Source: an uncultured delta proteobacterium (GTDB lineage: Bacteria; Desulfobacterota; Desulfobacteria; Desulfobacterales; B30-G6). Taken from it: a stretch of DNA of 64,000 nucleotides. The notes under the pieces are model-generated. The model saw only the letters and a list, made by a program, of their open reading frames with translations. It searched no databases and had not been told where the DNA came from. The stretch spans positions 1,760,001-1,824,000 of the forward strand of contig CAWGLD010000001.1 of the NCBI GenBank assembly GCA_963823335.1, read 5' to 3'. Shown in pieces: positions 1,167 to 17,648 of this stretch (position 1 is the stretch's first letter; each line of letters starts with the position of its first letter). The translations under genes and the position numbers were made by a program.

Positions 1167-1243
<77 letters not shown>

Positions 1244-1465: not shown

Positions 1466-1696
1466 CTAACATTTCAAATTGTCCACCACCTGGCGGACAT
1501 CACTTAAACATCATTTTCCTTTCAGGCTTTTGGTGGAACACTGACAATTTCCAAACCTTTTCTCCATTTTAATCTTTTCCATTATCGTGGACATGCCATT
1601 TTCCAGATAGTCTTTTTGGATGTCAACTAAGGAGTACTCGAAACAGTAACAAATTAAATCGTTCACAATATGGTCCTTCAAAATATGCTTTTCCAA
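1466..1696 (-). CDS. small Cys-rich (BFD-like/CopZ-associated) putative selenoprotein, UGA at 1511-1513
   Basis: LICYCF...CQC...KGK-U-CLSDVRQVV matches the CC motif of this family; hairpin GTCCGCC-AGGT-GGTGGAC 12 nt after UGA; weak TTG start. Confidence 0.6.
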
Positions 1697-1702
1697 GATG
1701 TT

Positions 1703-1872
1703 GATAGATGGAGAGAAGTCCAGTTATCAATTTTGATGTAAATTTTACCGATACCATACGGTTATGTCAATCGTGCACCGGAAAGCCCCATGAGTACAAT
1801 AAACGACCGACTGTCATTATATTCGCACATCGTTACTTTTTAGGCCACCTGATATCTACCGTTTTGTTGGAG
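1703..1872 (+). repeat. TGGAG-bounded spacer unit U1 (type A)
   Basis: GATAGATGGAGAGA...TTATCA start; TGATATCTACCGTTTTGTTGGAG end, identical in U2. Confidence 0.85.
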
Positions 1873-2037
1873 TCATCGGCAATGGCCAGTTGGAGACTTA
1901 TGCCAGTAATCTTTAAAAAATGATAGATAGCAAGACACCCATATATGGTATGATAGCCTTTTTAGAGGTTTCCCGTTTCGTTAATGTGTTGGAATCGGGA
2001 CTTCGCCCGGAGCAAAGTTCGGGTTACACCCAGCTTG

Positions 2038-3084
2038 TCATGCCGCCGGTCTTTTATCCGTAACTTTTGAGATGAAATCAACCTGCATTCTCACGACCTT
2101 ATCAAACCATTCACCCTCGTATATCTCGAAGTGGTCAATTGGTAGCGTATGGAATATGCCCAGGTTACCTGTTACCTCCGCAATTTTGACGTGAGAATTT
2201 GGTGCAACGATCTGGTCGTTCTCACATTGGAAAAAGACCATGGGACAGGTGACCCTTTTGGCAGCCTCAATGATATTTGGACCATGTGGCTCCACGATTG
2301 TGCGAGCAACGATTTCGTTGCGGAACAATTTTGAGCTTTTCACCAGTCGAGCATATCCTTCGTATGCCCCAGGCACATTGAGAATCGCTGTAGTTCCTGG
2401 AACGCCAATAGCTGGCAACATGTGGGGAGAAAGACCAAATCGAGAGCGCCCCTTATCGCGCTGAGCATGTATCAAAAGTTTGAGCATCCAAGCGATACCA
2501 ACCTGTTTAAGGACATGCTTCCCATCGACTCGATGATCCAGCGAAGAACATTGGCCGATCACACCGGCAATTCTGTGGTCCTCGGCTGCCAGCGCAATGC
2601 CGTAGTTACCCCCTGCCGATGTCCCCCAAACAACGATTTTGTCTGGGTCGATCTCTTTAAGTGAGCGCAGGTGAACTATCGCTCCACGGGCATCCTCAAT
2701 CTGCTTGCGAACAGAATAGAGTTGTCTTGGCTCCCCATCACTTTCACCGAAATGTCGATAGTCAAAGGAAAAGGCTGCAAACCCGGCCTCTACGAAGCGG
2801 AGTGCGTATTGCTCTATAATCATATCTTTCGTACCACAAAACCCCGTGTTGAGTAGGATACACGGGACTTTGACGGTGGTTTCCTCTGGAATATACAACC
2901 ACCCGCTAAGTGCAAGACCGTTAACCTCGAAAGTAACATTCCGTCGGCACGGCGGCGTGGAATACTTAGAAGTAATCTGCGGCATCGGCTGTCTCTTCAC
3001 CCGCAAGATGGGAAACATAATGATAACTATTAGATAAGTAGCGATTAACACAATTAAGGAACCAAGGATTTTTATCGCGATCAT
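2038..3084 (-). CDS. membrane-anchored alpha/beta hydrolase
   Basis: N-terminal TM segment, FDYRHFGESDGEPR, GTSAGG nucleophile elbow, C-terminal DHF. Confidence 0.88.
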   Translation of the reverse strand: MIAIKILGSLIVLIATYLIVIIMFPILRVKRQPMPQITSKYSTPPCRRNVTFEVNGLALSGWLYIPEETTVKVPCILLNTGFCGTKDMIIEQYALRFVEAGFAAFSFDYRHFGESDGEPRQLYSVRKQIEDARGAIVHLRSLKEIDPDKIVVWGTSAGGNYGIALAAEDHRIAGVIGQCSSLDHRVDGKHVLKQVGIAWMLKLLIHAQRDKGRSRFGLSPHMLPAIGVPGTTAILNVPGAYEGYARLVKSSKLFRNEIVARTIVEPHGPNIIEAAKRVTCPMVFFQCENDQIVAPNSHVKIAEVTGNLGIFHTLPIDHFEIYEGEWFDKVVRMQVDFISKVTDKRPAA

Positions 3085-3324
3085 GCGGCAGATCCTTTCT
3101 CAACAACATAGTGGAGCAAGGTTGGTTAAAGAAAATGCTTCTGTTCACTGGTGTCCGCTCATAACTATTTTAATGAAAACAATCATACATGCATAAATGT
3201 ATAAGGAAAAATGTTGATGAAGATAATCACCCGTCATACAAAATTGCTGATGCCATATCTTGGGGTCAAAGAAAATAATGCATAACTCAACATTTCGCTA
3301 ATAAGCCTTCAAACCGGAAACTGC

Positions 3325-3496
3325 GATTGATGGAGAGATGTCCAGTTATCAAGCTCAACCAAATTATTAGCGATACCATCTGGTTATCCCCACGGTATCA
3401 CGGAGGAGCCTATGAATACAAGATACAGTCTGTTGTGATAATTTTTTTGCACACCGGTAAAATTTAAGGCGCTTGATATCTACCGTTTTGTTGGAG
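3325..3496 (+). repeat. TGGAG-bounded spacer unit U2 (type A), preceded by a degenerate arm at about 3215-3324
   Basis: Colinear with U1 over about 170 bp; same start and end motifs. Confidence 0.85.
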
Positions 3497-3578
3497 CAAT
3501 CTGTAATGCACAATAAGAATGCAGGGCCATTTCAGAACTGATCGATTCCTACGGATCATCACACTCCTAAATAACAAC

Positions 3579-3635
3579 TTGACAACAAGCGTATGAAACC
3601 ATATATTAACTCTAACGTGGATATTGGTTATCCAC
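3579..3635 (+). promoter_or_regulatory. sigma70 promoter plus palindromic operator
   Basis: TTGACA(3579)-17-TATATT(3602); GTGGATA-N5-TATCCAC at 3617-3635. Confidence 0.7.
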
Positions 3636-3670
3636 ATAAGTGATATTGCATAAAATTTTGGAGGATCATT

Positions 3671-4042
3671 ATGTTTGACGAAACGTTTATGACGGTTGTT
3701 AGTAAAGAGGGTGTTGTTTCCATAGTATCATGTTCCGATAACGAAGCTCATGTAGTGAATACATGGAATTCTTACTTGGCTTTCCCTGGAGAGGACCGAA
3801 TGCTTATCCCAGTGTTTGGAATGAGAAAGACCCAGAAGAAAGTTGAGAAAAACCCCAACGTATTGCTTACTTTAGGCACTAAAGAGGTCGAAGGAAAAAT
3901 GGGGCCAGGCACCGGGTATCTTATCAAGGGAACAGCGAAATTCATGAAATTCGGCCCGGAATTTGATATGATGAAGCAAAATTTCTCTTGGGCTAATCGT
4001 GTTCTTGAAGTAACAGTTTCATCTGTAAAACAGACGATTTAG
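3671..4042 (+). CDS. FMN-binding protein (pyridoxamine 5'-phosphate oxidase-like family)
   Basis: EGVVSIV...HVVNTWNSYL...GPGTGYLIKGTA, like the Desulfovibrio FMN-binding protein; GGAGG RBS. Confidence 0.88.
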   Translation: MFDETFMTVVSKEGVVSIVSCSDNEAHVVNTWNSYLAFPGEDRMLIPVFGMRKTQKKVEKNPNVLLTLGTKEVEGKMGPGTGYLIKGTAKFMKFGPEFDMMKQNFSWANRVLEVTVSSVKQTI

Positions 4043-4266
4043 GCTTACATTTCCCTTGTCTTTACGCAGAGCGACTCCTCCTGATCATTAATGCTTGAAA
4101 AGAGGATCTAAGCAGCGTGTATTCGTAGGTAGTCGCTCTAAGCAATAATTCATGTCCGGGAAGACAACCTTTACGTTTACATTTTGTAATTACTATCCTG
4201 TTACTGAAACTGATATAAGAAATGTAAGGTAATAAGAGTCATTCCCTTTTGGTATAGGAGGGTCCA

Positions 4267-4755
4267 ATGCAGTTCAGTGTTGGAGTTGAGTACGCATTTC
4301 ATTCGTTGTTTTATATGGTTGATCTTCCTGAAGATAAGACTGTTGGTATCAAGAAAATAGCGGAATTAAATGCAATCTCAGAAACTTACCTATCAAAATC
4401 TTTCGCTAAACTGAGAAAGTTCGGTATCGTTCGGTCAATACCCGGAGTTAAAGGTGGCTATGAGTTAGCTAAACCTGCAGAGGATATTTCTTTTTGGGAT
4501 ATCATTGAAGCTATCGAAGGTCCCTCTTACTTTTTTCAGTGCGCTGAAATACGAAAAAAGAATATTTTTGTGGATGACCCTTCTGTGTTTACATCTGAGT
4601 GTCCTTGCCTGATAAAAGTGGTGATACAGGAAGCGGAGGAGTTGTTTCGTAATAGGTTAAAAACCAGGTCTCTACGTTGGTTATATGATCAAGTACACAA
4701 TGATTTTTCAGAGGAGAAAAAAAAGGCCATAACTGAATGGATTGATTCAATCTGA
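4267..4755 (+). CDS. Rrf2-family transcriptional regulator
   Basis: GVEYAFHSL, SETYLSK, GVKGGYELAKPAEDIS; C-terminal cysteines. Confidence 0.92.
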   Translation: MQFSVGVEYAFHSLFYMVDLPEDKTVGIKKIAELNAISETYLSKSFAKLRKFGIVRSIPGVKGGYELAKPAEDISFWDIIEAIEGPSYFFQCAEIRKKNIFVDDPSVFTSECPCLIKVVIQEAEELFRNRLKTRSLRWLYDQVHNDFSEEKKKAITEWIDSI

Positions 4756-4881
4756 TTTTATCCAGTAAGTGTTGAATATGAATACCTTGGGCAGTAGCCA
4801 ATTTAGTACCCACCAAGGATGCGGCTCAATTTAAGATATCATTGCTGATTCTGAAATTATCGGAGAATCCTCTGCACTGGT

Positions 4882-4909
4882 GATGAATGGAGAGAAATCA
4901 AGAATATCA
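4882..4909 (+). repeat. spacer unit U3 (left end only)
   Basis: GATGAATGGAGAGA-N8-ATATCA. Confidence 0.65.
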
Positions 4910-4964
4910 GTCTACCAGCACCAGGGCCAACGCTATCGTCAACGTCAAAGTCAAAGTCACCACC

Positions 4965-5085
4965 ATTGAACCGAAAAAGCGAGCGCATTCCCCGTAGCTT
5001 GCTGCGGGGTTAGCGAGCGAATCTAGATTAGACAGAATTCCTTACGGTCGAAGATTCCTCGTAGCTTGCTGCGAGGTTCTTCAAT
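4965..5085 (+). repeat. REP/MITE-like element of the GTAGCTTGCTGCG family
   Basis: ATTGAA...TTCAAT ends, two internal GTAGCTTGCTGCG hairpins; further copies at 23990, 42654, 54470. Confidence 0.85.
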
Positions 5086-5168
5086 AGAGGGACATTTTTA
5101 CTAGTCCAGACCACCTTACCGCTGTTATTAATCTGCGGATCTTGATCATCATAGTCGTTGTCGGTTAA

Positions 5169-6797
5169 TTATCCTAAAATGGCTTTAAGATCCTCTTCAG
5201 CTGATGAGATCGGTTTAATTTCAAAATTATCTACAAGAGTTTGCAGAACATTCGGGGTAATAAAGGCTGGTAGAGAAGGCCCTAAGCGGATATCTTTAAT
5301 GCCAAGATGAAGCAGTGCCAGTAAAACGCAAACAGCTTTTTGCTCATACCAGGAAATAATCATAGAAAGCGGCAATTCATTGACCCCAACACCAAATGCG
5401 TTTGAAAGCGCAAGGGCAATTTGAACAGCTGAATAGGCATCATTGCACTGCCCGGCATCTAAAAGACGAGGTATGCCGCCGATATCGCCTAGATCCTGGT
5501 CAAAGAAGCGGTATTTACCGCAGGCAAGGGTCAAGACAATGCAATTCTTGGGCACTTTTTCAACAAACTCAGTGTAGTAATTTCGGCCGGGTTTGGCACC
5601 ATCACAACCAGCTACCAGAAAGAAATGTTTTATATCACCTGATTTAACGGCTTCGATGATCTTGTCGGCAACGCCCAGAACGGCATTGCGGGCAAAACCG
5701 ACAGTTACCTCCTGTGTGACATGATCTTCCCCAAAACCTGGAAGCTCTAAAGCCCTATCAATAACCGGCTGAAAATTAAGGTCCGGGATATGAGGTATGC
5801 CCGGCCAGCCAACCATGCCGCTAGTAAATAGGTTTTCTTTATAGTCATTTTTAGGCCGCTGGATACAATTGGTGGTCATCAAAATGGCACCCGGAAAATC
5901 AGAAAATTCTTTCGTCTGTTTTTGCCAGGCCGTACCGAATTGACCGTAGAAATGTGGATATGCCTTTAACTTGGGGTAGCCATGCGTCGAGAGCATCTCG
6001 CCGTGGGAGTAGATGTTAATATCTTTTCCTTCTGTTTGTTTTAAAAGTGCCTCAAGATCGTTCATATCGTGTCCTGAGACAAGAATGGCTTTTCCCTTCT
6101 TATACCCCAGCGGAACCTTTGTCGGTACAGGATGACCAAATTTTTCTGTATTGCCTGCATCAAGAAGCTCCATGGCTTTATAGGCGGCCTCCCCACATCT
6201 GAGTGCCATCTGGACCCAGTCTTCAACGCTAAGGTCATCGCCCTGAATAGCGGCCAGCCCCTCATGCACATATGCGTAAACACTTTCATCTTCCTGCCCT
6301 AAAATCAGCGCATGGTCCGTGTAAGCACTAACGCCCTTAATTCCATAGAGCACTGTATGTTTTAAGGATAGGATATCCGGATTTTCACCTGGATACGATT
6401 TTATTCCGACTTGTTCCCCTTGTTTCACCAACTCTTCCAAGCCGGTTTTTGCTTGGAAAACGGCAGGTCCGTCAGGCCATCCATTATTACCGCCGGCAGC
6501 CTCAACTTGTGTTTTTAATTTTTCACGCAACCTAATGGATTGCTGGATCAAATCCACAAATCGATCAGGGTCAAAATCAACATTTGTCAGGGTGGAGAAG
6601 GCTGCCTTGACCGTGAAAACGTTTACATCACTGTCTGAGACACCAACTTTTCGCCCTTCCACGGCAACTTGTGACAGTCCCATTAATGAATAAAGAAGCA
6701 GATCCTGCAAAGCTGCGATTTCCGGTAATTTTCCACAAACGCCCTGTACGGTGCAACCTGTCCCCTTAGCGGTTTGTTCACACTGGTAACAAAACAT
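5169..6797 (-). CDS. hcp: hybrid cluster protein (hydroxylamine reductase)
   Basis: MFCYQCEQT...C...GVCGK N-terminus, SGHD, GCDG, GQCND, SWYEQKA motifs. Confidence 0.97.
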   Translation of the reverse strand: MFCYQCEQTAKGTGCTVQGVCGKLPEIAALQDLLLYSLMGLSQVAVEGRKVGVSDSDVNVFTVKAAFSTLTNVDFDPDRFVDLIQQSIRLREKLKTQVEAAGGNNGWPDGPAVFQAKTGLEELVKQGEQVGIKSYPGENPDILSLKHTVLYGIKGVSAYTDHALILGQEDESVYAYVHEGLAAIQGDDLSVEDWVQMALRCGEAAYKAMELLDAGNTEKFGHPVPTKVPLGYKKGKAILVSGHDMNDLEALLKQTEGKDINIYSHGEMLSTHGYPKLKAYPHFYGQFGTAWQKQTKEFSDFPGAILMTTNCIQRPKNDYKENLFTSGMVGWPGIPHIPDLNFQPVIDRALELPGFGEDHVTQEVTVGFARNAVLGVADKIIEAVKSGDIKHFFLVAGCDGAKPGRNYYTEFVEKVPKNCIVLTLACGKYRFFDQDLGDIGGIPRLLDAGQCNDAYSAVQIALALSNAFGVGVNELPLSMIISWYEQKAVCVLLALLHLGIKDIRLGPSLPAFITPNVLQTLVDNFEIKPISSAEEDLKAILG

Positions 6798-7102
6798 AGC
6801 GGCTCTCCTTGTTAGCTTTTTGAATATTTAAGAATTGGAACTCATTAGATTTATGATTTCTTGCATTATGGTTAAGTATTCTCGAACTCAAGAATAGTGA
6901 TGCTATTGTGAAGATCAAAAGAGAAATGATCAGACGTGTCGAGATGTGTTTGAAAATCAGAGCAGGTACAAGCCTGATTCATGATTTAAGATACAATATC
7001 AGGAAATTATTGAAACCACAAGATATGGTTATTTTAAGATCGATGCAGAAGATGTGATATGCTCGGAAATGTCGGCTGAAAACCAAATATCAACCCGGTG
7101 AT

Positions 7103-7116
7103 GATACATGGAGAGA
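7103..7116 (+). repeat. spacer unit U4 core, interrupted by IS; more unit sequence at about 7461-7480
   Basis: GATACATGGAGAGA; TGATAACACGAAAACACAAC at 7461 matches 9614 and 14241. Confidence 0.65.
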
Positions 7117-7410
7117 CTGTCGAAAAAGCTTTTATGACAAACCAGGCTATCTCTCATATTCAGATCATACCACTTTTAGCGACTTGAGCCTATCAATCTC
7201 CCAATTCAGTCTATGCGAAACCATAATTGGCCACTTTTTCTATGTTGTGGACCATACAATAAAGCAGCCACTGGATATTTACTTTCACCTTACCTCTTAA
7301 GTTAAACTTGTCCATTCGTTTTTGAGTCCGAATGTTGGCAAACACAGGTTCAACGATTGCGATCCGTCGGGGATAGATCTTACGCCCTTTTTCTGAGTCG
7401 ATCTTTTTGA
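7113..7410 (-). mobile_element. IS1182-family remnant (transposase 3' end plus one terminal IR)
   Basis: KIDSEKGRKIY.RR...VEPVFANI...FNLRGKVKVNIQWLLYCMVHNIEK; GAGACTGTCGAAAAA end. Confidence 0.8.
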
Positions 7411-7572
7411 TGTAGTCCAAATTAGGAGATCTTTTCAATTTGAGGTTAATTGCTAAGAGTTGATAACACGAAAACACAACTTTTCCAGAATAGGACTTGT
7501 ATTACGCGTAATGATGGTGCCACAGGTTTGTCTAACCCGCTGATAAGACATCGCAGGTATTAAAGCGGTATA

Positions 7573-9087
7573 TTAGTAATTTTCATAAGATTTTTTTAAT
7601 ATTTCAATAGGATGCTGAACCGGGTAGTTACTCATTTGGTTGAATTGTAGTCGGCAACTTAAGCAATCAGTGATCAGATAGTTTGGATCCAATTGTCTAA
7701 CTTTTGCCATCAATCGGCTACCCATTTGTATGGAAGTTTTATGAAAATCATGTTTGAAACCCATGATCCCTGCAATGCCGCAACAGTAAAAAGTGCTCTG
7801 GAAAGTCTCCACCGAGATATCAGGAATCTGGGCTAATAGGTCCAGATAGGGCATGCCCACACCCTGTTCCCTTAAGTGGCAAGGCGGATAATAGACCATC
7901 TGCCCAAGGACTGGTCCCAACTTGGTGTCCAATTTACCTCTACGATATAAATCTAATAGGTATTCTCCAAGGTCATAGGTGTTTTCTGCGACTTTGATTC
8001 GTTTCAACGGATCTATAACCGAGAAATATCCATTGTCTTTTAGGATTTCTCCATAGATGGATTTATCGAGTACGCGATGCTCTGCCATTTTACAAGAGCC
8101 ATTTAATGCATATTCAAAGTTCACGGTTTCCTGCGTTTTATTGTTCTTGCCGAGCGCTGCTTTACTTCCAGCGGATACTTTGGATTTATCAATACTGCTC
8201 CCTTTGAATGGTACTTTTTCTGGGATTTTCATATGCCGATCGTCGCCACCGGCAAGATCCTGGTATTCATTTGAGTAGTATGCACACTCCCGGAGTGCGT
8301 ATTTCAACATATAGCCGCAAGTGGGACAAGAGCAGACTACATCATACCCCCCTTCCACCACCTCTGCCAGTTGCGTTATCGTTCGCTCTGCAAACGTCAA
8401 TGTCAACTTTCTGTCACCTTCGAGCATACTCGGCATTCCGCAGCAATTCTGTTCCGGATAATAGACACTAATATCGTTTCTCTCGAGAATTTCGATGGCA
8501 GCTTTGGGGACGTCCGGGAATAAATACCGGGCAGTACAACCTGCAAAGTAGGCTACTTTGCGCCCCTTTTTCGATTGGGGCTTTTCATCCAACTTACGAC
8601 GTTTAGCCCATGACGGAAAATTCTCTTTCGGGAAAATCGGAAGCTTGCGTTTAGGGTTTATTCCTGCAATCCTTTTAATAAAACGACTCGTATGTTTGTT
8701 TTGAAGGAAAAAATTGGATATCTGGGGAATGGCACCACACAACTTCCCCACTCGCTCCACATCTTCAAGAGTTCGGATGTATAAATCGAGTCCATCCCTA
8801 TCTATAAAAAGAGTTTTAGCGGTGATAATATCCTCACGGATATTAGGACAAGGGCATAATGCGCAGTAGTTGCATAAATCTGCAACATGCCGCAATTCCT
8901 GGGAAGTAATCTGTTCACCAGTTTCTTTTTCCCTGTCCCACAGTTTGTATATCTCTGGAAATAATAAGCAACTGGTGTCCATAATGTGCCGGCAACAATC
9001 ACAATCCGTGCAGGCGTCAACGACCTTCCTCATCATGTGTTCCGCATTATCCATCTCACTTGTAGATAAGAACTTGCTATTTGGCAT
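7573..9087 (-). CDS. GlpC/HdrD-like Fe-S oxidoreductase with CCG domains (start uncertain)
   Basis: CTDCDCC and CNYCALC clusters, YFAGC, CCG twice, CPTC, CLSC. Confidence 0.85.
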   Translation of the reverse strand: MPNSKFLSTSEMDNAEHMMRKVVDACTDCDCCRHIMDTSCLLFPEIYKLWDREKETGEQITSQELRHVADLCNYCALCPCPNIREDIITAKTLFIDRDGLDLYIRTLEDVERVGKLCGAIPQISNFFLQNKHTSRFIKRIAGINPKRKLPIFPKENFPSWAKRRKLDEKPQSKKGRKVAYFAGCTARYLFPDVPKAAIEILERNDISVYYPEQNCCGMPSMLEGDRKLTLTFAERTITQLAEVVEGGYDVVCSCPTCGYMLKYALRECAYYSNEYQDLAGGDDRHMKIPEKVPFKGSSIDKSKVSAGSKAALGKNNKTQETVNFEYALNGSCKMAEHRVLDKSIYGEILKDNGYFSVIDPLKRIKVAENTYDLGEYLLDLYRRGKLDTKLGPVLGQMVYYPPCHLREQGVGMPYLDLLAQIPDISVETFQSTFYCCGIAGIMGFKHDFHKTSIQMGSRLMAKVRQLDPNYLITDCLSCRLQFNQMSNYPVQHPIEILKKSYENY

Positions 9088-9221
9088 GCTGTGTATCCTG
9101 AATCTCGATTTGTACACCTAACTACATACTTGATAAGAACCATTTAACCTTTCACGATTTCATGGCTCCTCAAAACATGTGCTCTATAAATGAAATCACA
9201 ACTGAAAGCCATTCAATTCCC

Positions 9222-9475
9222 TGTACAGATATAGCATTTCTGACAAAAATGCAAAAAAGGGCAAATCCATCTAAATGGTATTGCCCTTTACGATTCAAAT
9301 CACAAGAAATTATATGCTCAAAAAATATTAATATTTCTTGGATTATGTCAACTGAGTTATAAGGTAGTTACATGAATTGACGAAATGGGTCAAGAACTCA
9401 TCGATTTTATTGGTGGTGACTTTTGATACCCTGTTTGAAAGCCAAGTATCACTGTAATACCGATATATGGAGAGA
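9222..9475 (+). repeat. spacer unit U5 (type B, left end missing) in tandem with U6
   Basis: CATTTCTGACAAAAATGCAAAAAAGGGCAAA block, TGGTGGTGA, ends AATACCGATATATGGAG. Confidence 0.75.
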
Positions 9476-9705
9476 TCCTAAGGTTATCACCCCGCCAAAA
9501 AACTTGCGATAACATCACATTTTGGGCTGAAAATAGCCTGGAACGCTATTACTGATACCATTTTTCTTACAATTATGCAAAAAAGGGAAAACCGCTGAAA
9601 CGGTTCTCCCTAATGATAACATAAAAATACAAGTCGCTTAAAAACGGCTATGGTGGTGATGTGCTATAAAACCTGAAAATGTCGTTAAATACCGATGAGT
9701 TGGAG
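9462..9705 (+). repeat. spacer unit U6 (type B, complete)
   Basis: GATATATGGAGAGA...TTATCA, central A-run plus hairpin, ends AATACCGATGAGTTGGAG 7 nt from the next gene's stop. Confidence 0.85.
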
Positions 9706-9712
9706 TAATCTG

Positions 9713-11332
9713 CTATTCAAATGTCAGGCTCTCAACTACTGACGCAATTTTTTCTGGGTTTCGTCCGGTGTGGATAACAAGATAAACACATTTATTATCT
9801 CTGTATGAAGATACGACCAGCGATGTCAATTTAATATAATCGTAATATGTCCATTTGATATCTGTCCTATATGCGCGTGAGCCACAATTCAAAGTTATTT
9901 CCTTATTGGCTATAACCTCAGCATCAGAACCTATGATTTGAAGATATTCCATATAAAATTTTGGTCCGAAATCCTCTAATTTGAGCTTATCCGGAATGGC
10001 AATTACAGATGCTTCAAAATTTGCCCTGTTTGGTGTTTTCATTCTCATTATTTGTCCCGGAGAAGTGACACTTTGCTTTTCGCTCCCAATAGGATACTCA
10101 AACATAAATTTTGGAGATTTCGCTCGCCTGAATATACCGTCCTTTGCTATACCCTCTTCTCTGGATAACCAGACAAAACCATCTGAAAAAGAAGTGGACA
10201 CGCTTTTTACCAATTGATCAAGTCTTTCGGCTTCTCTCGTATTTGCTGGCAACGACTCAGAAGATACAACTGCAGGAAATATATATTTCTTCGTTAATTC
10301 AAGCGGAAGAGAAGTTTTCCCGACGGGTAAGTCAGCGGTAAATACCACAACCATATTCATCTCCGCTGCCACCATAATATACTGACCATTAGAGCCGATA
10401 GCAGAATAATTGCCGTCATCATCCACCCACCATTGATACCCGTATTGCACAGCTGGTTTAGCTTCAATATGTCCACGCGTTGATTTTTCTACCCAAGAAC
10501 TCGATACAAGTTGCTTCTTCTCCCACCTTCCCTTATTGAGGTAAAGCCATCCAATTTTGGCCATGTCATGGGGTTTTAACCACATCCGACCATATCCAAC
10601 ATCAATACCCTGCGGGCTTTTTTCCCAATCAATTTCTGAAATACCAAGGGGAGTGAATAGATTCTTTTCAGCAAATTCTCTGGTTTTCATTTTCGTTGTA
10701 GTGTTGATGATTACCGATAAAAGATGTGATAAGCCGTTGCAGTACACGTATTTACTACCTGGAGGACGGACCATCGGTAGATTAAGGACATGTTGCCCCC
10801 AATCACCGCTGCGCCTCATTTCGAATAATCCTTTCCAATTGTAATGATGAGAGTCCCTGCAATCTAAACCAGAAGCCATAATCAACAAGTGCTCAAGTGT
10901 AATTGACCTTTTATTGCCACCTAAGCTATCAATTATATTATGCGGTAATAATTCAACAATAGGTTGATCGACACTTTTTATATACCCTCTATCAATCGCT
11001 ATGCCTATCAGGATCGACATAATACTCTTTGTACAGGAACGAATGATGTGTCTCTGGCCTTTTGAAAATGGGTAAAAGTAGGCATCAAGAACCATGTAAC
11101 CATTGCGGATTATTGATATGCTATCTATGTTGTAACCTTTCATTTTTATCTCTTCAATCATATTGGCAAGCACTTGAGATTGCATGCCCTGTTCCTCAGG
11201 AGTGGAGGTCTGCCATCCATTTGCGGGGTAAGTGTTAACGGCTGCGGGCGAGAGTGAATAGGAAAATGTAGTAATCAAAAAAGCAAGAAGGGTGTAAAAT
11301 AAAATGTACCATTTATCTTGAATCAAATTCAT
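9713..11332 (-). CDS. secreted serine hydrolase (class C beta-lactamase-like) with C-terminal extension
   Basis: Signal peptide, SCTK (SxxK), YCN (YxN), YGYQWW. Confidence 0.88.
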   Translation of the reverse strand: MNLIQDKWYILFYTLLAFLITTFSYSLSPAAVNTYPANGWQTSTPEEQGMQSQVLANMIEEIKMKGYNIDSISIIRNGYMVLDAYFYPFSKGQRHIIRSCTKSIMSILIGIAIDRGYIKSVDQPIVELLPHNIIDSLGGNKRSITLEHLLIMASGLDCRDSHHYNWKGLFEMRRSGDWGQHVLNLPMVRPPGSKYVYCNGLSHLLSVIINTTTKMKTREFAEKNLFTPLGISEIDWEKSPQGIDVGYGRMWLKPHDMAKIGWLYLNKGRWEKKQLVSSSWVEKSTRGHIEAKPAVQYGYQWWVDDDGNYSAIGSNGQYIMVAAEMNMVVVFTADLPVGKTSLPLELTKKYIFPAVVSSESLPANTREAERLDQLVKSVSTSFSDGFVWLSREEGIAKDGIFRRAKSPKFMFEYPIGSEKQSVTSPGQIMRMKTPNRANFEASVIAIPDKLKLEDFGPKFYMEYLQIIGSDAEVIANKEITLNCGSRAYRTDIKWTYYDYIKLTSLVVSSYRDNKCVYLVIHTGRNPEKIASVVESLTFE

Positions 11333-11365
11333 GGTTCCCCCTTGGGCAAATATTAGACGATTGCA

Positions 11366-11564
11366 GATACATGGATTCTGCAAATATTACTTCGCCCAGA
11401 TAACTGTGTCTTTCGAGCATATCTGCAATCTGAGTCCCCCACAATTCTATTACAGATATCCCATTTCTTACAAAAATACAAAAAAGGGGAAATTCAGCTG
11501 AACCGATCTTCCCCTTGATATGATAAAAAACCTGTAAACATCAAGAAACTGTCATGTGTTGGAG
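11366..11564 (+). repeat. spacer unit U7 (type B, 4-nt deletion in left motif)
   Basis: GATACATGGA-TTCTGCAAATATTAC aligns to U8; ends GTGTTGGAG. Confidence 0.8.
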
Positions 11565-11665
11565 AGTTGTGGAGACTCCGCGAGCTACACCCTACGGGCT
11601 CGCTCGCCTCCACAACAGCTATCTATAGGAAAGGTACCAGACATCAACGGTCAAAGTCGTGTACT

Positions 11666-12502
11666 TTATTTCTCTCCAATGATAGCAATTTCTGCCGAAT
11701 CCGGAGTCAGAGGTTTACCGGCAACATCCGAGTATAACGCTTTAACTTTTAGGCCGTTTTCTTCAAATTCGTTTCTCAGCGAATCTTTGTTGAAGTACTG
11801 TAACCAATTATAAACCGTACGCTTCCGGTTTTTTTCTATCACGGTATATTTATCAAGAATCACCAGTTCGTTTTCATATTTAAACGTGTTTACAAAGCAG
11901 TAATAATCGTCAGGCGACCAGAAACCGTTTAGCTGATTTAGTTGATAAGCTGCCAATTCTTCTCTCTGCTTGAAAGCGTTTATAGAATATACATCAAGTA
12001 ACACGGAACCTTCCGGCTTCAGTAGCGACCGAAATTTTGAGAGTATCGTTTTCCTTTGTTCGGGACTCAGGGCGCAGAAATCACACATTATCATTATGAT
12101 AAGATCGAAACGGTCTGTTGTATCAAAATCAAGATAGTTCATCAGAAGGTAACTGATTTCAAGTTCTTTTCGAGTAGCCTCCTGCTTAGCATATCTGATA
12201 GAATTTTCAGAGAAATCTATACCAGTCACAGTTGCACCACGTTCTGCCAGTTTTTCTGTGTAGAGACCCGGTCCGCAGCCGAAATCTGCAATTTTAGTGC
12301 TTTCACCCACTCCGAATCGAGAGGCAATCCATTCTGCGGAACATTCAATAAAATTTCTGTTCCGGGATGACATATCAACTGATTCGTTCAGGTGATATCC
12401 GAGCATCTGTTTTGATGTGTGTTCATCTGTCCAAAGTTCATCAGCTGTATAGAACTGAAAAGGTTCGGGACGTGAATTTATTTCTTTGAGTTCCTGAAAC
12501 AT
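11666..12502 (-). CDS. class I SAM-dependent methyltransferase
   Basis: IADFGCGPGLY, VTGIDFS motifs. Confidence 0.92.
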   Translation of the reverse strand: MFQELKEINSRPEPFQFYTADELWTDEHTSKQMLGYHLNESVDMSSRNRNFIECSAEWIASRFGVGESTKIADFGCGPGLYTEKLAERGATVTGIDFSENSIRYAKQEATRKELEISYLLMNYLDFDTTDRFDLIIMIMCDFCALSPEQRKTILSKFRSLLKPEGSVLLDVYSINAFKQREELAAYQLNQLNGFWSPDDYYCFVNTFKYENELVILDKYTVIEKNRKRTVYNWLQYFNKDSLRNEFEENGLKVKALYSDVAGKPLTPDSAEIAIIGEK

Positions 12503-12631
12503 AATTAATCCTATATTGATTTCTAACACATAGCGATTTAATCCTTGGCTCGTCTTTTTGAGTGATGCTCTGTGGTGTGAACAGATGCCTTATTAAAGTC
12601 GATGCATTATTCATTTTTTAGGTTGACCTTT

Positions 12632-12766
12632 GATTGATGGAGAGATCCTGCAGATATCACCTTTGCCAGATATCTGTGTTTTCCAAGGGTATCTGCAATA
12701 GCGACCTGCCTCATTACCCTTACAGATAGCCCATTTCTTACAAAAATGCAAAAAGGGCAAATCCTG
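12632..12766 (+). repeat. spacer unit U8 (type B, right half truncated)
   Basis: GATTGATGGAGAGATCCTGCAGATATCAC...CCATTTCTTACAAAAATGCAAAAAGGGCAAA. Confidence 0.8.
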
Positions 12767-12859
12767 CAATAGAATTTAGTCTTTCCGGTAAGATCGCCGG
12801 TGTTCGGCTCCGGTTCATTAGGCTATTCAGCCCCGCCGCAGAATGAAAAATTTACATAA

Positions 12860-12899
12860 AAAAAGCCCTTCAATCTTATTTGAAAAGATTGAAGGGCTG
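12860..12899 (-). terminator. intrinsic terminator (expression platform of the riboswitch remnant)
   Basis: AGCCCTTCAATCTT/AAGATTGAAGGGCT stem with a T run on the minus strand. Confidence 0.7.
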
Positions 12900-12970
12900 C
12901 ACCCAGCTTTCTTGGCCCTTTCTATTTTTAACGATTGCTCTCTGTATCACCGCAGAGAGATGGCTATTTA

Positions 12971-13023
12971 CCAAGGCAGGTCTTCTGACTCCCGATTCAA
13001 TCTAATTTCCGCGCCTTTCCATC
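12971..13023 (-). ncRNA. 3' half of a cobalamin riboswitch (truncated)
   Basis: Minus strand GGAAAGGC...GGGAGTCAGAAGACCTGCC (B12 box); 5' half not seen. Confidence 0.55.
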
Positions 13024-13045
13024 TGGTTGTCTGTCAAGTTTTTAC

Positions 13046-13191
13046 TAGAAGCCATCTCAAAAAAAGGGTTTTGGCTCAAGTTCAAGGCGGGCCCGAACTT
13101 CAACCCGCAGGCATACTGAAGTATTCCGAGGAGTTGAAGCAAGGGACCAACACAGAAATTGGGTCAAAAAACTTTTTTGAGATAGCTTCTA
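13046..13191. mobile_element. MITE with about 19-bp terminal inverted repeats
   Basis: TAGAAGCCATCTCAAAAAA...TTTTTTGAGATAGCTTCTA; partial copy at 24190-24247. Confidence 0.8.
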
Positions 13192-13230
13192 ATCAAAAGG
13201 ATCAACCATCTGGACCCCCTTGCCTAACCT

Positions 13231-13797
13231 CTAAAACCGCAACAGTGGAACTATTTCAGGCGTTTCATCCTTATCGATAGGAAAGAACTTAAGGGATTTG
13301 CCGTGAAAAACTTCCATCTGCTCCTCATTCACCTTTTGGGATAGCGGCAAATAGTAAAAGCCCAGTTTCATGCTGTAGTTTTTTTCGTTTGTTTTCAGTT
13401 TTATCTTGACCTCATTATGATTCCACTTGTAAACGGTTTCGCCGGTTTTTGCAGAAAAACTCTTATCAGGGTTGCCGTATTTCGATTTCAAGTAATTACG
13501 AAACTCCCCGAAAACCTCTTCACTTTCCAGCGTGATATACACCGCAAAAAACTGGTCTTCGTAGAAACCATATACTACATCGGGGACCGGGATCTCATTG
13601 ATTGTGTGAACGATATTGGGCTGGGTGTAATAGACCACATTTTCTTTCTCGTACAACCGAGCCAACCTTTCCTGATGAGCCGCGGGTGAGGCCCATTGGA
13701 TTCCCATGAACCCGTCTTTCAGATCCTCGGCGCCTGCAAAGCCGACGGCAAGGCAGATAGCGACCAGGACGCAACCTCCCGCAATTAGCGTTTTCAT
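13231..13797 (-). CDS. secreted hypothetical protein
   Basis: GAGG RBS, MKT plus hydrophobic signal peptide, 188 aa ORF. Confidence 0.75.
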   Translation of the reverse strand: MKTLIAGGCVLVAICLAVGFAGAEDLKDGFMGIQWASPAAHQERLARLYEKENVVYYTQPNIVHTINEIPVPDVVYGFYEDQFFAVYITLESEEVFGEFRNYLKSKYGNPDKSFSAKTGETVYKWNHNEVKIKLKTNEKNYSMKLGFYYLPLSQKVNEEQMEVFHGKSLKFFPIDKDETPEIVPLLRF

Positions 13798-13856
13798 GTC
13801 AGTATTCCTCATCATTAAAGGTTGATGATTTCGCAAAAATCCATCGTCAAAATCAT

Positions 13857-13909
13857 ATTGAACCGAAATAGCGAGAGCTTTCCCCCCTGCTTGCGGCGGG
13901 TAGTTTCAA
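13857..13909 (+). repeat. short degenerate copy of the GTAGCTTGCTGCG-family element
   Basis: TTGAACCGAAATAGCGAG...CTTGCGGCGGG...TTCAA. Confidence 0.6.
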
Positions 13910-13918
13910 CTGATGGTT

Positions 13919-14104
13919 TTAAAACTTTTGAGGATCACAAAGATTTTCAGAGCTGTTTGCTACACGTCCACAACCACCACAAACATAGTGTCCGTTCGAT
14001 ACCAGTTTTTTCCACTCTTCAAAATTATCTTTTAACAGTCCATCACCGTGCAGAGCACATAGATGTTTATCATGTCCTTCATGTGGCATTTCTTTTTTGC
14101 TCAT
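13919..14104 (-). CDS. small Cys/His-rich putative metal-binding protein
   Basis: HDKHLC...CGGCGRVA...NLCDP; GGAGG RBS. Confidence 0.75.
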   Translation of the reverse strand: MSKKEMPHEGHDKHLCALHGDGLLKDNFEEWKKLVSNGHYVCGGCGRVANSSENLCDPQKF

Positions 14105-14239
14105 AATTACCTCCAATGCATTCTAATAAACTACTATTTAGGCAGTTTTAAATTCAGTGGTTTTTTAAGGATCTTGGTAACCTTCAAAAAATAGGTTGCT
14201 AAAGGCCACTTGTCAAATATTTTAATTAATGAGTTTGTC

Positions 14240-14330
14240 ATGATAACACAAAAACACAACATGGCTAAATTTGTCTATGGTGGTGATATTATAAAAAACC
14301 TGTAGATATCGTGGAATTGTGATATGTATG
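14240..14330 (+). repeat. spacer unit U9 (right arm fragment)
   Basis: TGATAACACAAAAACACAAC...CTATGGTGGTGAT...AAAACCTGTAGATATC aligns with U6 and U7. Confidence 0.7.
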
Positions 14331-14339
14331 ATATCGGCA

Positions 14340-14672
14340 ACTGGTATCTGACGCCGATATTGCTTCCGGAAATAGTACCAACCCAAGTTATTCTGTCGGT
14401 TTTTTCACTATAAGTATCGGCAATGAAATGAGTTGTATCCCCTTCAACAGTTGTTGTATAGGAGCCAAATCCATATTTCGCACAGTTCACTGAGGTAAAT
14501 TGGTTATTATCAAATTTAAACCAATCTTTTTCCGAAGATTATTTACCCATTTTTTTCCAGATGTTCCAGAAAAATTGTTTCCATCCAAGATTCCTGCATA
14601 GGCGCTTATAATTGCAAAAACAAAGATTACGGCGATCACAATTAAAAGGCTTGCTCTAATTGGATATTTCAT
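14340..14672 (-). pseudogene. frameshifted secreted protein gene
   Basis: Signal peptide plus LDGNNFSG in one frame continues as KDWFKF...SVNCAKYGFG...WVGTISG in another; shift at T run about 14550 plus an in-frame stop. Confidence 0.6.
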
Positions 14673-14935
14673 AATATCAATATGTGTTAACACATTGTGA
14701 TATATATCGTACAAAATATATTATATGCCACTGGTGTGAAATACATTGAAATTCCAATTCGCCACATCTCTATTTATGGTACCGCTAAAAAGGTAATGAC
14801 ACACATTTCTTTTTGTCTTTTTTGCTTGACCTGACTTGACCTGACTCGATCGCTTACTAAACTTGTCACTTCGAATTTCTCTCTGCCGCTAAACAATTAA
14901 ATATGGCCTCGGTACCAAATAAATTAAGGTAGACC

Positions 14936-15727
14936 ATGTTGTGGGGGTATATCACAAAAGAGAGCCCATACACGAAATGGGAATTTTGGCTCGATCATCA
15001 AGGTATGCAGCCGGGTCGGGCTCCCCATGGTCCTTTGCACAAGGTATTTGTAAATGATAGAGCGTTGGATTCTTCACAACCTCCCGTCCAATATGGGTCG
15101 ATTGCGGTCAAGGAAAACTATGGGAAAGACAAAGAACTCAAAGCAATTACAGTTATGTACAAAGTTACTGGTTACAATCCGGATGCAGGTGACTGGTTTT
15201 GGGCAAAATATTCACCTGAAGGAAAAGCTGATAAGTTTGGGAAACCAGAAGGGTGTGTTAAGATGAAGTTGGGGTTGGCCCTTGTTTTGGTACTTTTACT
15301 ATTTGTTGTTGTGTTTGAAAGCACCCGGCGTAACCAAGCAAATTTCTTCTTATTGCTGTTGCATTTGTTTTGCTTACTGCTGGTTATAGGAATCGGCTAT
15401 TTTGGTGGCGAGCTTGTTTTTGGGAAAAAATTGGCTGTCATTCAAACTACCGACAAAACTGTTACAGATACAAAACTGGTGATTGCTGGAGAAAAGTTAT
15501 TCGAGAAGAAATGTTCTTTTTGTCACGTTACAGATAGCACCGATACCAAAGTTGGTCCTGGGCTTAGAGGACTATTCGATAGGGAAAAGATGCCTGTCAG
15601 TGGTTGGCCTGTTTCTGCTGAAGGATTACGGCGACAACTAAAATCGCCATATAGTCAAATGCCTCCTTTCAAAGACCTTACCGAAGAGGAAATTGAGTCT
15701 TTGACAGGCTATTTACAATCTCTTTGA
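14936..15727 (+). CDS. chimeric ORF: truncated cytochrome P460-like domain + TM segments + monoheme cytochrome c
   Basis: PHG...VKENY...TVMYK...GDWFWAKY lacking its CxxCH; C-terminal CSFCH...GPGL...MP. Confidence 0.6.
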   Translation: MLWGYITKESPYTKWEFWLDHQGMQPGRAPHGPLHKVFVNDRALDSSQPPVQYGSIAVKENYGKDKELKAITVMYKVTGYNPDAGDWFWAKYSPEGKADKFGKPEGCVKMKLGLALVLVLLLFVVVFESTRRNQANFFLLLLHLFCLLLVIGIGYFGGELVFGKKLAVIQTTDKTVTDTKLVIAGEKLFEKKCSFCHVTDSTDTKVGPGLRGLFDREKMPVSGWPVSAEGLRRQLKSPYSQMPPFKDLTEEEIESLTGYLQSL

Positions 15728-15892
15728 TGCCAATAATCATTAAGCAGCAACCTGTAAGCACTCGAAAAAATTCACTAGCGCCAACGCATCGGTAGAACGA
15801 TCTTCCCTCTACACTCTGTGATATCAGAATTCCATGAAAAATTTTGTGGACCGGTCCCCATAGTGAAATACGATGGCCAACCGGAAAACAAA

Positions 15893-16567
15893 TCAAAAAC
15901 GAAATGCGACACCGAAATAGTACTGCAATCCTTCGATGTCAACATTTCCAGTTGTATCCTCAAAACTCAGTGTTGTTTCGTTAATTCGGGTTCCGATATT
16001 TAAGCCAAATTGTTCCGATAAAAAGATATCAATACCTGCTCGAGCGTATAAACCAACGCCAAACTTGATTTCTGAATTAGAGCTAAGTTCATCGGAATCT
16101 GAGTCTTTCGGTTCGGTGGACTGTATTCCCCAGATAAGCAGGGGTCCGGCACCCACATATAACCGAAGCCATTTTGATGGTTCAAGACCGAAATACCCAC
16201 CGAAAAAATAATCCATTATAAATGAGTCCACCTCCACTGCAACCGCGGCCGTGCCGCCGTTGCTTCCGGAAGATGCACGAAAATGTTGAACATCGCTGTC
16301 AACGCTGAAGATGGCGCCGGTTTCGATGCCGTACTTTAGCAGCCCCCCGCCGAATGGGCCTTGCGCATCAGCGCCGAAAATACTGGTGTCGAAGTCTTTT
16401 CCTTCAATGTCTGAATTATTGTACGAAATGGTCATCTTGCCGTAGAAAGCATGGCCGGTTGTTGGCTCTATTGCTTCTTGCGACAACACTTTGCCCATCG
16501 GTACCAGGCACATCCCTGTACAGATTATCAGAATAATTCCCAGCTTGATGCTCAGATTCACATGCAT
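15893..16567 (-). CDS. outer-membrane beta-barrel protein
   Basis: Signal peptide, amphipathic strands, terminal YYFGVAFRF. Confidence 0.75.
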   Translation of the reverse strand: MHVNLSIKLGIILIICTGMCLVPMGKVLSQEAIEPTTGHAFYGKMTISYNNSDIEGKDFDTSIFGADAQGPFGGGLLKYGIETGAIFSVDSDVQHFRASSGSNGGTAAVAVEVDSFIMDYFFGGYFGLEPSKWLRLYVGAGPLLIWGIQSTEPKDSDSDELSSNSEIKFGVGLYARAGIDIFLSEQFGLNIGTRINETTLSFEDTTGNVDIEGLQYYFGVAFRF

Positions 16568-16578
16568 TTTCGGTCTAT

Positions 16579-17349
16579 CTAAAAGCAACTAAATCCACCA
16601 TCAATGACAACGGAGTCACCAGTGTGATATGAACTGGCATCGCTTGTAAAATAAATAGCAATCGGGCCAAAATCTTTTGGTGCTCCCCAACGCCTCTGAG
16701 GAATACGTTTCATCATCTTTTCTGTAAACGTATCGTTTTCAAAGAGGGGTGCTGTCATATTGGTCTCAATCCATCCGGGTAGAATTGCATTTGCTCTAAT
16801 ATTATATCGTGCATATTCAACGGCAATTGACCTGACGATAGCTGTCACACCGGCTTTGGTGGCTGCATAGTGTTCTCCAGTAGGCATGCCAAACTTAGCT
16901 GAAAGACTACTTGTTATCACAATTGACCCACCTTTTCCTTGCTCCATCATGTGCGCCAATGTAGGCTTCAATGTGAATAGAACACCGTCTATATTGACAC
17001 CAAAAATGGTATGCCACTCTTCCAGGGTCATCTTGTGAAATGGCGTACCAAGCCATGAAGTACCGGCATTGGCGAAGCAGGCGTCTACCTTCCCGAGCAA
17101 ACTGATTGTCTGCGAAAAGCATTCTTCAACCTGCTTTTGGTTTGAGACATCGCATTCCAAGGAAAAAACCTTATGCCCATGCAGTTTGAGTTTATCGACT
17201 GCAGTTCTATTCCTTTTCTCATTTCGGCTCCAAATACAGATGTCAGCACCGGCCGCTGTAACTGCTTCAGCCATCCCAAACCCTATGCCGCTGTTGCCAC
17301 CTGTTACAAGGACTGATTTCCCGGTAAGATCAAATGTTGAATTTGTCAT
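16579..17349 (-). CDS. SDR-family oxidoreductase
   Basis: TGGNSGIG, ANAG, YAATK. Confidence 0.95.
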   Translation of the reverse strand: MTNSTFDLTGKSVLVTGGNSGIGFGMAEAVTAAGADICIWSRNEKRNRTAVDKLKLHGHKVFSLECDVSNQKQVEECFSQTISLLGKVDACFANAGTSWLGTPFHKMTLEEWHTIFGVNIDGVLFTLKPTLAHMMEQGKGGSIVITSSLSAKFGMPTGEHYAATKAGVTAIVRSIAVEYARYNIRANAILPGWIETNMTAPLFENDTFTEKMMKRIPQRRWGAPKDFGPIAIYFTSDASSYHTGDSVVIDGGFSCF

Positions 17350-17372
17350 GTGTCGACCTCCCTAATAGTGCA

Positions 17373-17648
17373 CTACCGTTTCGATCTTTCAAGTTTGATT
17401 GTTACGAGGTTCTGGTAGTCTGGACATCGCAGACTAATAGTATCCCCATCCCACCATGGCAAGGAGCCACCAAACTGGAATGTTTGGAGACTTGGGAAGA
17501 TATCATGGTAGAACCAGCCACATAAGCCTGCTGGGTTATGACAGCTTATTTCAAAGGAGTCACCTATTTTGTGCCCGGCGTCACATCTGCCTTCTGAGCC
17601 TGTAATGCTTGCAACAACTTTGTAACCTAACTTTGGATCATTTGCCAT
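17373..17648 (-). CDS. TIGR04076-family small Cys protein
   Basis: GRCDAGHKIGD...GLC...GG.LPW...CPD pattern. Confidence 0.75.
   Translation of the reverse strand: MANDPKLGYKVVASITGSEGRCDAGHKIGDSFEISCHNPAGLCGWFYHDIFPSLQTFQFGGSLPWWDGDTISLRCPDYQNLVTIKLERSKR

Follow-up and report, generated by a model that had tools for sequence, protein, structure and literature searches.

Units bounded by TGGAG in a Desulfobacterales genome are candidate recombination sites of a gene-cassette system distinct from integrons

Introduction

To our knowledge, integrons are the only well-established bacterial system that both stockpiles and shuffles single-gene cassettes. Their defining traits are insertion by the integrase IntI and folded attC sites. 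We studied a 64-kb stretch of contig CAWGLD010000001.1 (positions 1,760,001 to 1,824,000; hereafter the window) from an uncultured member of the Desulfobacterales, in which unrelated genes alternate with a family of intergenic units that begin with the motif GATNNATGGAGAGA and, where complete, close in GTTGGAG. An initial annotation took these units for recombination sites, or the ends of a gene-capture system, that stack cargo beside a tRNA-fMet gene with the recombinase acting in trans or lost. What are the units, and what could have assembled such an array? We report here that they are probably composite sites for recombination in a gene-cassette system other than an integron, with a recombinase acting in trans on the array of the window.

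Results and Discussion

The repeated motif is one arm of a palindromic core

The window contains six exact copies of GATNNATGGAGAGA (1703, 3325, 4882, 7103, 9462 and 12632), with 0.01 expected from shuffled sequence. All six lie on the + strand between long open reading frames (ORFs), in exact agreement with the initial annotation, which saw none elsewhere in the window. The further copy it described at 11366 is indeed 4 nt (GAGA) shorter than that at 12632. WTATCA follows 7-8 nt downstream of the motif in five of the six copies, the exception being 7103, where the end of an insertion sequence (IS) follows. GTTGGAG is present at 1866, 3490, 9699 and 11558, where it closes complete units; both of these elements had been noticed before.

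Alignment of 70 unit starts from the whole genome gave the consensus GATa.ATGGAGA.AAGTCCAgtTATCA. Both GATNNATGGAGAGA and WTATCA fall in this one conserved stretch and are thus the two arms of a single palindrome. The core is a 26-bp imperfect palindrome, GATNNATGGA-GANAAG-TCCAGTTATC, with inverted 10-bp arms around a 6-bp spacer. With one arm inverted, the two agree at 8 or more of 10 positions, and the core falls within the Xer/dif-type design of inverted arms of ~10-11 bp around a 6-8 bp spacer. Inverted arms around a short spacer are the layout of the lox, FRT and dif cores used by tyrosine recombinases. The earlier description of the units as not dif-like must therefore be revised, the core being palindromic in a dif/lox-like manner. 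An ORF starting at the ATG of the motif (1708-1923) was considered as coding and dropped, since other copies reach a stop within ~20 codons.

On one side of the core only, a conserved arm of 145-220 nt follows and terminates in GTTGGAG, with weak conservation (nnATC) running a few bases beyond. The 170-nt unit is a core with a long one-sided arm rather than a plain spacer. The two subtypes proposed initially were recovered by nhmmer profiles as type A (170 nt) and type B (~200-245 nt), the latter including an internal fragment at 9216-9288 besides the copies given in Table 1. When up to three mismatches were allowed, the full 26-bp core was found in the window only at 1703 and 3325, with 0 expected. 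The right arm is degenerate at 4882, an IS interrupts the core at 7103, the three type B units have a different right arm and the copy at 11366 lacks most of the spacer. At 4882 and 7103 there is a core alone, and no unit follows it.

No inverted termini were seen in the unit alignment, as the initial annotation had stated. RNAalifold on 41 copies returned neither a consensus fold nor end-to-end pairing on either strand (-5.4 and -4.2 kcal/mol), and Rfam at gathering thresholds matched only tRNA in the window, leaving the units unmatched. None of the matches named at the outset as refuting, to a known IS end, an attC-type fold or an Rfam family, was found. The arms of type B units include a terminator-like hairpin on the - (cargo) strand. 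Unit 1 has a promoter-like site that matches 11 of 12 positions and faces across the core. Promoter-like sites are not enriched in the units overall (41 found, 35.8 expected). Both features are hints of arm function and no more. The long arm could hold accessory binding sites, as in cer and psi, where ~150-180 bp of conserved accessory sequence lie on one side of the core, or it could provide a terminator or promoter for neighbouring genes.

Units form oriented arrays throughout the genome

The 14-mer motif occurs 25 times in this 4.37-Mb assembly (94% complete; G000, with contigs C1 and so on). The type A profile gave 90 matches genome-wide and the type B profile 12, five of them in the window. 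Merged, these amount to 98 units in 20 places, comprising 16 arrays and 4 singletons. A neighbour lies within 12 kb of 94 of the 98 units, whereas 500 random trials averaged 40.3 such units and never exceeded 57, so the clustering that the initial annotation had proposed to look for is present. All but two of the 94 clustered units share the orientation of their array, and units of types A and B are interleaved within the same arrays. The four singletons all lack the 5' end of the unit and its core (model positions 30-134, 47-90 and 109-170 of type A, and 41-125 of type B).

The 16 arrays cover 186 kb, or 4.3% of the genome, with a median unit spacing of 1652 bp. By mechanical ORF calling, 49 of 73 inter-unit segments contain one ORF of at least 100 aa, and 92 of the 112 ORFs of this size run in the direction opposite to the unit.

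Half of the 16 arrays lie near a tRNA gene, at a distance of ~5 kb or less (Met, Leu twice, Arg, Glu, Lys, Pro and Phe), in a genome with 47 tRNA/tmRNA genes in total. This proximity looks greater than chance, and the arrays therefore tend to occupy tRNA-linked islands. In the window, no repeat longer than 11 nt of positions 1151-1330 was found in the next 28 kb, so that no tRNA 3'-end repeat bounds the island. The idea of a gene-capture system beside tRNA-fMet is supported as regards recombination sites; since 16 arrays exist, the system is not tied to tRNA-Met.

Cassettes break at the core

One set of breakpoints comes from a duplicated cassette on contig C7 (213,586-214,686 and 226,995-228,095), 99.7% identical over 1101 bp. 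Identity runs from the GATACATGGAGA of one unit to the GATACATGGAGA of the next. Outside it, the left flanks are unrelated and the right flanks belong to different unit subtypes. At each junction the spacer equals that of the unit to its right, consistent with the effective crossover lying at the spacer's left edge. A second duplicated cassette, in genome G007, is repeated from first to last base apart from a 2.35-kb difference in the middle. In addition, four different units in G000 and G007 adjoin one and the same cargo end (...acgcgacttcgtgtcgcaatacc), the sequences diverging directly after ATGGAGA. The breakpoints coincide to the base with the 12-nt shared core.

A cassette, taken from core to next core, comprises an arm, as a rule a single gene in the opposite orientation, and a short left module adjoining the core that follows. 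The left modules at 1482-1702 and 6859-7102 recur in other genomes, and in both cases compared the match stops inside the core and different sequence follows. The match of 1482-1702 in congener G001 ends in the core, and that of 6859-7102 to G001:C1 ends at window position 7114, the last base of ATGGAGA. The breaks anticipated at TGGAG were thus found, within the core that contains it, in both duplicated and cross-genome cassettes. Two other genera have the serine hydrolase cassette (9713-11383) at 92-93% identity. Type B units flank it on both sides in G013. In G010 the unit before it is of type A and the break comes immediately past GTTGGAG, indicating that the 3' TGGAG of the unit is also a junction.

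The locus is hypervariable among relatives

The window array lies between flanks that congeners have in common, with a thioesterase gene, YggU and tRNA-Met on the left and msrA on the right. From flank to flank the stretch measures 17 kb in the present genome, 38.6 kb in G001 and 3.8 kb in G005, and the three have no cargo in common. Homology resumes at 18690 (G001) and 18333 (G005). GC content is ~40% from just past tRNA-Met to ~18.3-18.7 kb and ~50% around it. The locus is hypervariable. The unit family was found in 12 of 14 other genomes searched from the same family and in one of 26 from other families of the order.

A tyrosine recombinase gene is nested in a unit

We found 11 tyrosine-recombinase matches in the genome, and a unit harbours one of them. 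The element at C1:163,780-164,844 consists of unit-model positions 1-65, a tyrosine recombinase gene in the same orientation as the unit, and positions 109-170; it is located 1.6 Mb from the window array on the same contig. The window array itself, which starts 460 nt past the tRNA gene, has no recombinase gene. The nested gene thus provides a candidate for the recombinase in trans that had been postulated. A truncated, near-identical copy (C9:36,318-36,719) adjoins the 3' end of a unit. The two strongest tyrosine-recombinase genes of the genome, at C3:153.9 kb and C5:425.7 kb, are taken to be xerC and xerD.

Relatives of the nested enzyme are 278 aa at full length and have the "simple" recombinase architecture of a core-binding and a catalytic domain. 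In six aligned homologues the catalytic set R, K, H, R, H and Y is unchanged. The best NCBIfam model is XerA_Arch, at 102 bits against a cut-off of 220, and XerD and XerC score ~40 bits against ~330; with every score below cut-off, the enzyme falls outside the curated Xer families. Its nearest solved structure is XerA (4A8E, E 9.6e-15) and its nearest solved relatives are XerA and XerD. No solved integron integrase appears among its structure matches at E <= 0.001. Nor is it the IntDes subgroup, described as a Desulfovibrio group with an arm-binding domain (Smyshlyaev et al. 2021, PMC8138268).

Among 4701 candidates, 4196 proteins are related to the recombinase at E <= 0.001, many of them on contigs of 1-1.5 kb. 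A relative is encoded at 485 loci of the genome collection, mostly in Desulfobacterales, Desulfosarcinaceae, Desulfatiglandales and Syntrophaceae. Desulfosarcina widdelii PP31, which is in culture and completely sequenced, is among the genomes concerned.

The nested gene (C1:163,902-164,738) reads MKVSKAGKIWLDYHRIHSKKK and resumes in another frame after nine A's at codon 19. A survey of 60 of the 80 relative loci listed found the same A9 run, at which a one-base shift is needed (nucleotide 54), in 28 loci, PP31 among them; A10 occurs in one, A8 in five and A7 in one. The other 25 have no run of seven or more A's and are read straight through; a sister clade is of this kind. A9 forms extend down to 58% protein identity, indicating that the run is conserved and not decayed. 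Runs of nine A's are reported to cause transcriptional slippage, which IS elements exploit (Baranov et al. 2005, PMC1088944). Slippage may therefore gate expression of the recombinase.

Sequence resembling the core also precedes related genes. In the closest clade a GATNNAT(T/G)GAGA-like sequence was read by eye ~120 nt 5' of the start codon in 12 of 12 loci (L020-L032, L034). A strict-pattern search for a core-like sequence upstream found it in 9 of 60 loci. Four relative loci, again by eye, have TGA-N7-TCA in place of TGGA-N6-TCCA, in an ambiguous register. In PP31 (G041) the recombinase-upstream sequence occurs at C1:602709, 604693, 667541 and 6438124, with 2 kb between two of the four. Its conserved part is ...ATCTTGCCAG-N6-TAACTATC, indicating a site diverged from that of the window.

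A model for cassette movement

We suggest the following model, built on the anatomy of the sites and their breakpoints. The 278-aa Xer-like recombinase would be made only after a slip on the A9 run. It would bind the inverted arms of the core and exchange strands at the spacer. Two cores in direct orientation would yield a circle of arm, cargo and left module, joined through one core, and this circle could re-enter at any other core. Repeated excision and reinsertion would build and shuffle the 16 arrays.

Several observations weigh against this model. The spacers vary between sites (GAGAAG, GAGATG, GACAAG and GATAAG), and many tyrosine recombinases do not exchange strands between mismatched spacers. 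Only two of the seven window sites have the canonical core; the right arms of type B units differ, and no type-B-specific recombinase was found. The G010 junction after GTTGGAG is not explained by core-by-core exchange alone. Nor does the model account for the entry of new genes into cassettes, since the hcp gene of the window and its counterpart in congener G004 share only the gene: 5161-6835 is 95% identical to G004:C11:8726-10400, homology ends within ~40 nt of the gene ends, and the 7 kb fetched around the G004 gene contain no core or unit. The assembly, which is 94% complete, has no copy of the recombinase that is readable unshifted. Finally, no recombination product, either a circle or an empty site, was seen. 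Metagenome contigs from four runs of four studies hold cargo sequences of this organism, some pieces with 0 differences. The only deletion-compatible joints among them, 1731>3449 and 1734>3361, lie between units 1 and 2 and have sides of 21-32 nt, which repeats can mimic.

Alternative explanations

The units might instead be miniature, non-autonomous copies of a 1.07-kb IS-like element with a tyrosine recombinase, which insert singly at TGGAG-type targets beside existing copies and trap genes passively. The recombinase-bearing element has the same two ends as the units, each end has TGGAG, many recombinase homologues are found on the 1-1.5 kb contigs typical of repeated elements, and the same cargo stands behind a type A unit in G010, where a type B unit is found here, the break being at GTTGGAG. 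However, the duplications comprise unit and cargo together and have either edge in the core, and no solitary complete unit exists, as all four singletons lack the 5' end and core. Conservation fades past GTTGGAG with no sharp stop, and no empty target site was found. We therefore hold this account to be unlikely. Pairs of an IS and its miniature inverted-repeat transposable elements (MITEs) resemble the present family in that short gene-less copies share their ends with a longer enzyme-encoding copy (here C1:163780-164844), and in high copy number. Unlike them, the units have no terminal inverted repeats, the enzyme is a tyrosine recombinase and not a DDE or HUH transposase, the copies are not scattered but stand in oriented arrays, and cargo travels along with the unit.

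It is quite improbable, in our judgement, that the units are regulatory or structural intergenic repeats (terminators, promoters or a small RNA) and that the arrays arose by ordinary duplication and homologous recombination within tRNA islands of conventional integrases. The tRNA genes near half of the arrays, a 398-aa integrase gene 4.7 kb beyond the C7 array, the type B hairpin on the cargo strand and the promoter-like site of unit 1 would all suit such an origin. Against it, breakpoints coincide to the base with the 12-nt shared core instead of falling anywhere in 170 nt of homology. The units also lack a conserved fold on either strand, an Rfam match and an overall excess of promoter-like sites, and the island has no bounding tRNA 3'-end repeat such as tandem islands targeted to tRNA genes would have. 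We give least weight, as a very remote prospect, to a divergent integron or a cluster of attC sites lacking integron integrases (CALIN) with unusually long attC sites. The arrays are mostly single-gene, in one orientation and with the repeat on the 3' side of the gene, and the top-scoring NCBIfam model is named 'tyrosine recombinase/integron integrase'. Yet the integron integrase model TIGR02249 has its best genome match at 88.5 bits against a cut-off of 265, with the nested enzyme at 34.6 bits, and the best structure match is XerA. The unit ends are direct TGGAG repeats, not inverted R''/R' with a predicted hairpin fold, and there is no attI/Pc platform.

Comparison with known systems

The cassette system proposed here shares with integrons, including sedentary chromosomal integrons and CALINs, its co-oriented arrays of mostly one-gene cassettes, the site at the 3' side of the gene, a tyrosine recombinase, cassettes that are duplicated and common to several genera, and hypervariable content at a fixed locus. 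It differs in its 278-aa Xer-like enzyme, far under the IntI cut-off. Its site has a palindromic core of double-strand type with a 6-bp spacer and a long one-sided arm, whereas attC is folded. The recombinase gene is nested in a site and not part of an attI/Pc platform, and 16 arrays exist in this genome. The gaps of 160-240 nt around the first cargo gene (2038-3084) also leave room for its own signals.

The core has the two inverted ~10-bp arms and 6-bp spacer of Xer sites (dif, cer/psi), and the solved relatives of the enzyme are Xer proteins. Unlike a single dimer-resolution site, the units number 98 in 20 places, bound cargo genes and have a dedicated recombinase gene besides the presumed xerC and xerD, with no dimer-resolution role indicated. 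The pdif modules of Acinetobacter plasmids likewise carry cargo bounded by Xer-type cores in varying contexts. There the flanking XerC/D and XerD/C sites face in opposite directions and the host XerCD is used, whereas the present sites are direct repeats (92 of 94) with a dedicated enzyme encoded within the site.

Full-text literature searches of main articles returned no description of such a system, and none is given in the portion of the 2021 tyrosine-recombinase classification available to us (PMC8138268). It is thus apparently an undescribed counterpart of integrons. Whether the wider proposition holds, we regard as evenly poised: that this is a second, integron-independent cassette platform, common in sediment Desulfobacterota, in which a slippage-gated Xer-like recombinase encoded in its own site moves single-gene cassettes among arrays and across genera, the units also supplying a terminator and possibly a promoter. 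If so, cassette platforms evolved more than once, in this case from an ordinary Xer-like enzyme and a lox/dif-style site. The system would also account for ~4% of the genome and for hypervariable islands in a major group of marine sediment sulfate reducers, and its compact recombinase and 26-bp site might be of use as a tool. Because D. widdelii PP31 is cultured, has a complete genome and carries an A9-type gene, the idea is directly testable.

Annotation of the window and other repeats

The features of the low-GC island are collected in Table 1. The ORF at 1511-1696, which the initial annotation had read as a Sec protein and the first cargo, is not recognisable as such and has only a weak BFD-like Pfam match (E 0.0067). 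Unit 2 is preceded by a left module 'cgctaataag...ctgc', of a family found ahead of at least five other units. The cassette at 3671-4755 is the sole one in the window with genes on the same strand as the units. A homologue of the methyltransferase (68-76%) lies within a cassette of G001:C9, and the type B unit at 11365-11566 is probably a dead site.

Table 1. Positions, strands and supporting matches of features in the variable island of the 64-kb window
Feature	Position	Strand	Support
tRNA-Met, left edge of low-GC island	1167-1243	+	Rfam tRNA 63 bits; ARAGORN tRNA-Met at C1:1761167-1761243; homology to congeners stops 1285-1449
Left module before first core, holding 61-aa ORF 1511-1696	1482-1702	-	77-81% identical module in G001, G002, G008
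Type A unit 1: core 1703-1728 (GATAGATGGA-GAGAAG-TCCAGTTATC) and one-sided arm closing in GTTGGAG	1703-1872	+	nhmmer positions 1-170, E 2.5e-39; core 0 mismatches
Cargo: alpha/beta hydrolase, 348 aa	2038-3084	-	Pfam Hydrolase_4, E 3.2e-13
Type A unit 2: core 3325-3350 and arm	3325-3496	+	nhmmer E 8.2e-48; core 1 mismatch
Cargo: PNPOx-like FMN-binding protein (3671-4042) and Rrf2 regulator (4267-4755)	3671-4755	+	Pfam PNPOx_N E 1.6e-6; Rrf2 E 2.7e-33
Bare core with degenerate right arm (TCAAGAATATC), no unit behind	4882-4908	+	Motif match; sequence comparison
Cargo: hybrid-cluster protein (hcp)	5169-6797	-	Pfam Prismane, E 3e-170
Left module upstream of hcp, reaching next core	6859-7102	+	89% identical to G001:C1; also G010, G001:C27, G007:C26
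Core left arm (7103-7116) fused to truncated IS; transposase fragment 7211-7477 (-)	7103-7480	+	Pfam DDE_Tnp_1_6, E 6e-16
Cargo: CCG-domain Fe-S oxidoreductase	7573-9117	-	Pfam CCG, E 6.7e-25
Type B unit, complete: core-like start GATATATGGAGAGATCCTAAGGTTATC, terminator-like hairpin 9611-9584 (-), GTTGGAG end	9462-9705	+	nhmmer type B E 3.3e-74; terminator scan
Cargo: serine hydrolase, beta-lactamase fold	9713-11383	-	Pfam Beta-lactamase, E 3e-26
Type B unit, core minus 4 nt (GAGA)	11365-11566	+	nhmmer type B; alignment to 12632
Cargo: SAM (S-adenosylmethionine)-dependent methyltransferase	11666-12529	-	Pfam Methyltransf_25, E 3.7e-21
Type B unit in two parts: 5' 12632-12763, 3' 14239-14326	12632-14326	+	nhmmer type B positions 1-132 and 151-238
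1.5-kb insert of split type B unit: 150-nt high-copy repeat 13039-13198; ORFs 13231-13836, 13919-14116 (-), both without Pfam match			
Remaining variable low-GC island, no recognisable units	14327-18690		Pfam: cytochrome c/P460, OMP (outer membrane protein) beta-barrel, SDR (short-chain dehydrogenase/reductase), DUF5619 protein; GC 0.35-0.46 vs ~0.50 flanks

Other repeats accompany the units. The ~150-nt element at 13039-13198, inside the split type B unit, has 26-nt inverted ends (88% complementary) and represents a separate MITE-like family, with 94-99% identical copies listed at 19 other places in this genome and present in five or more congeners. A ~120-nt repeat (ATTGAACCGAAAAAGCGAGCG...) at 4966-5085 and 13857-13900 is 92-98% identical to many copies across the genus and unrelated to the units; for the stretch at 4966-5085, which comes after the bare core at 4882, the range is 95-98%. 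Metagenome contig depth on it was 265-924, against less than 100 in neighbouring bins.

The IS with a DDE_Tnp_1_6 transposase and terminal repeat CTGTCGAAAAAG is fused to a core at the identical position at window 7103-7480, C4:535471, C7:231164-232947 and G005:C25 ~5343. It either targets the core or travels as a cassette. A GC-rich hairpin element (GTTGTGGAGACTCCGCGAGC...GCTCGCTCGCCTCCACAAC) lies at 11565-11615, directly 3' of the unit's GTTGGAG, and the same hairpin occurs within ~20 nt past GTTGGAG at C1:117132, C4:170876 and C9:36158 (4 of 66 unit ends).

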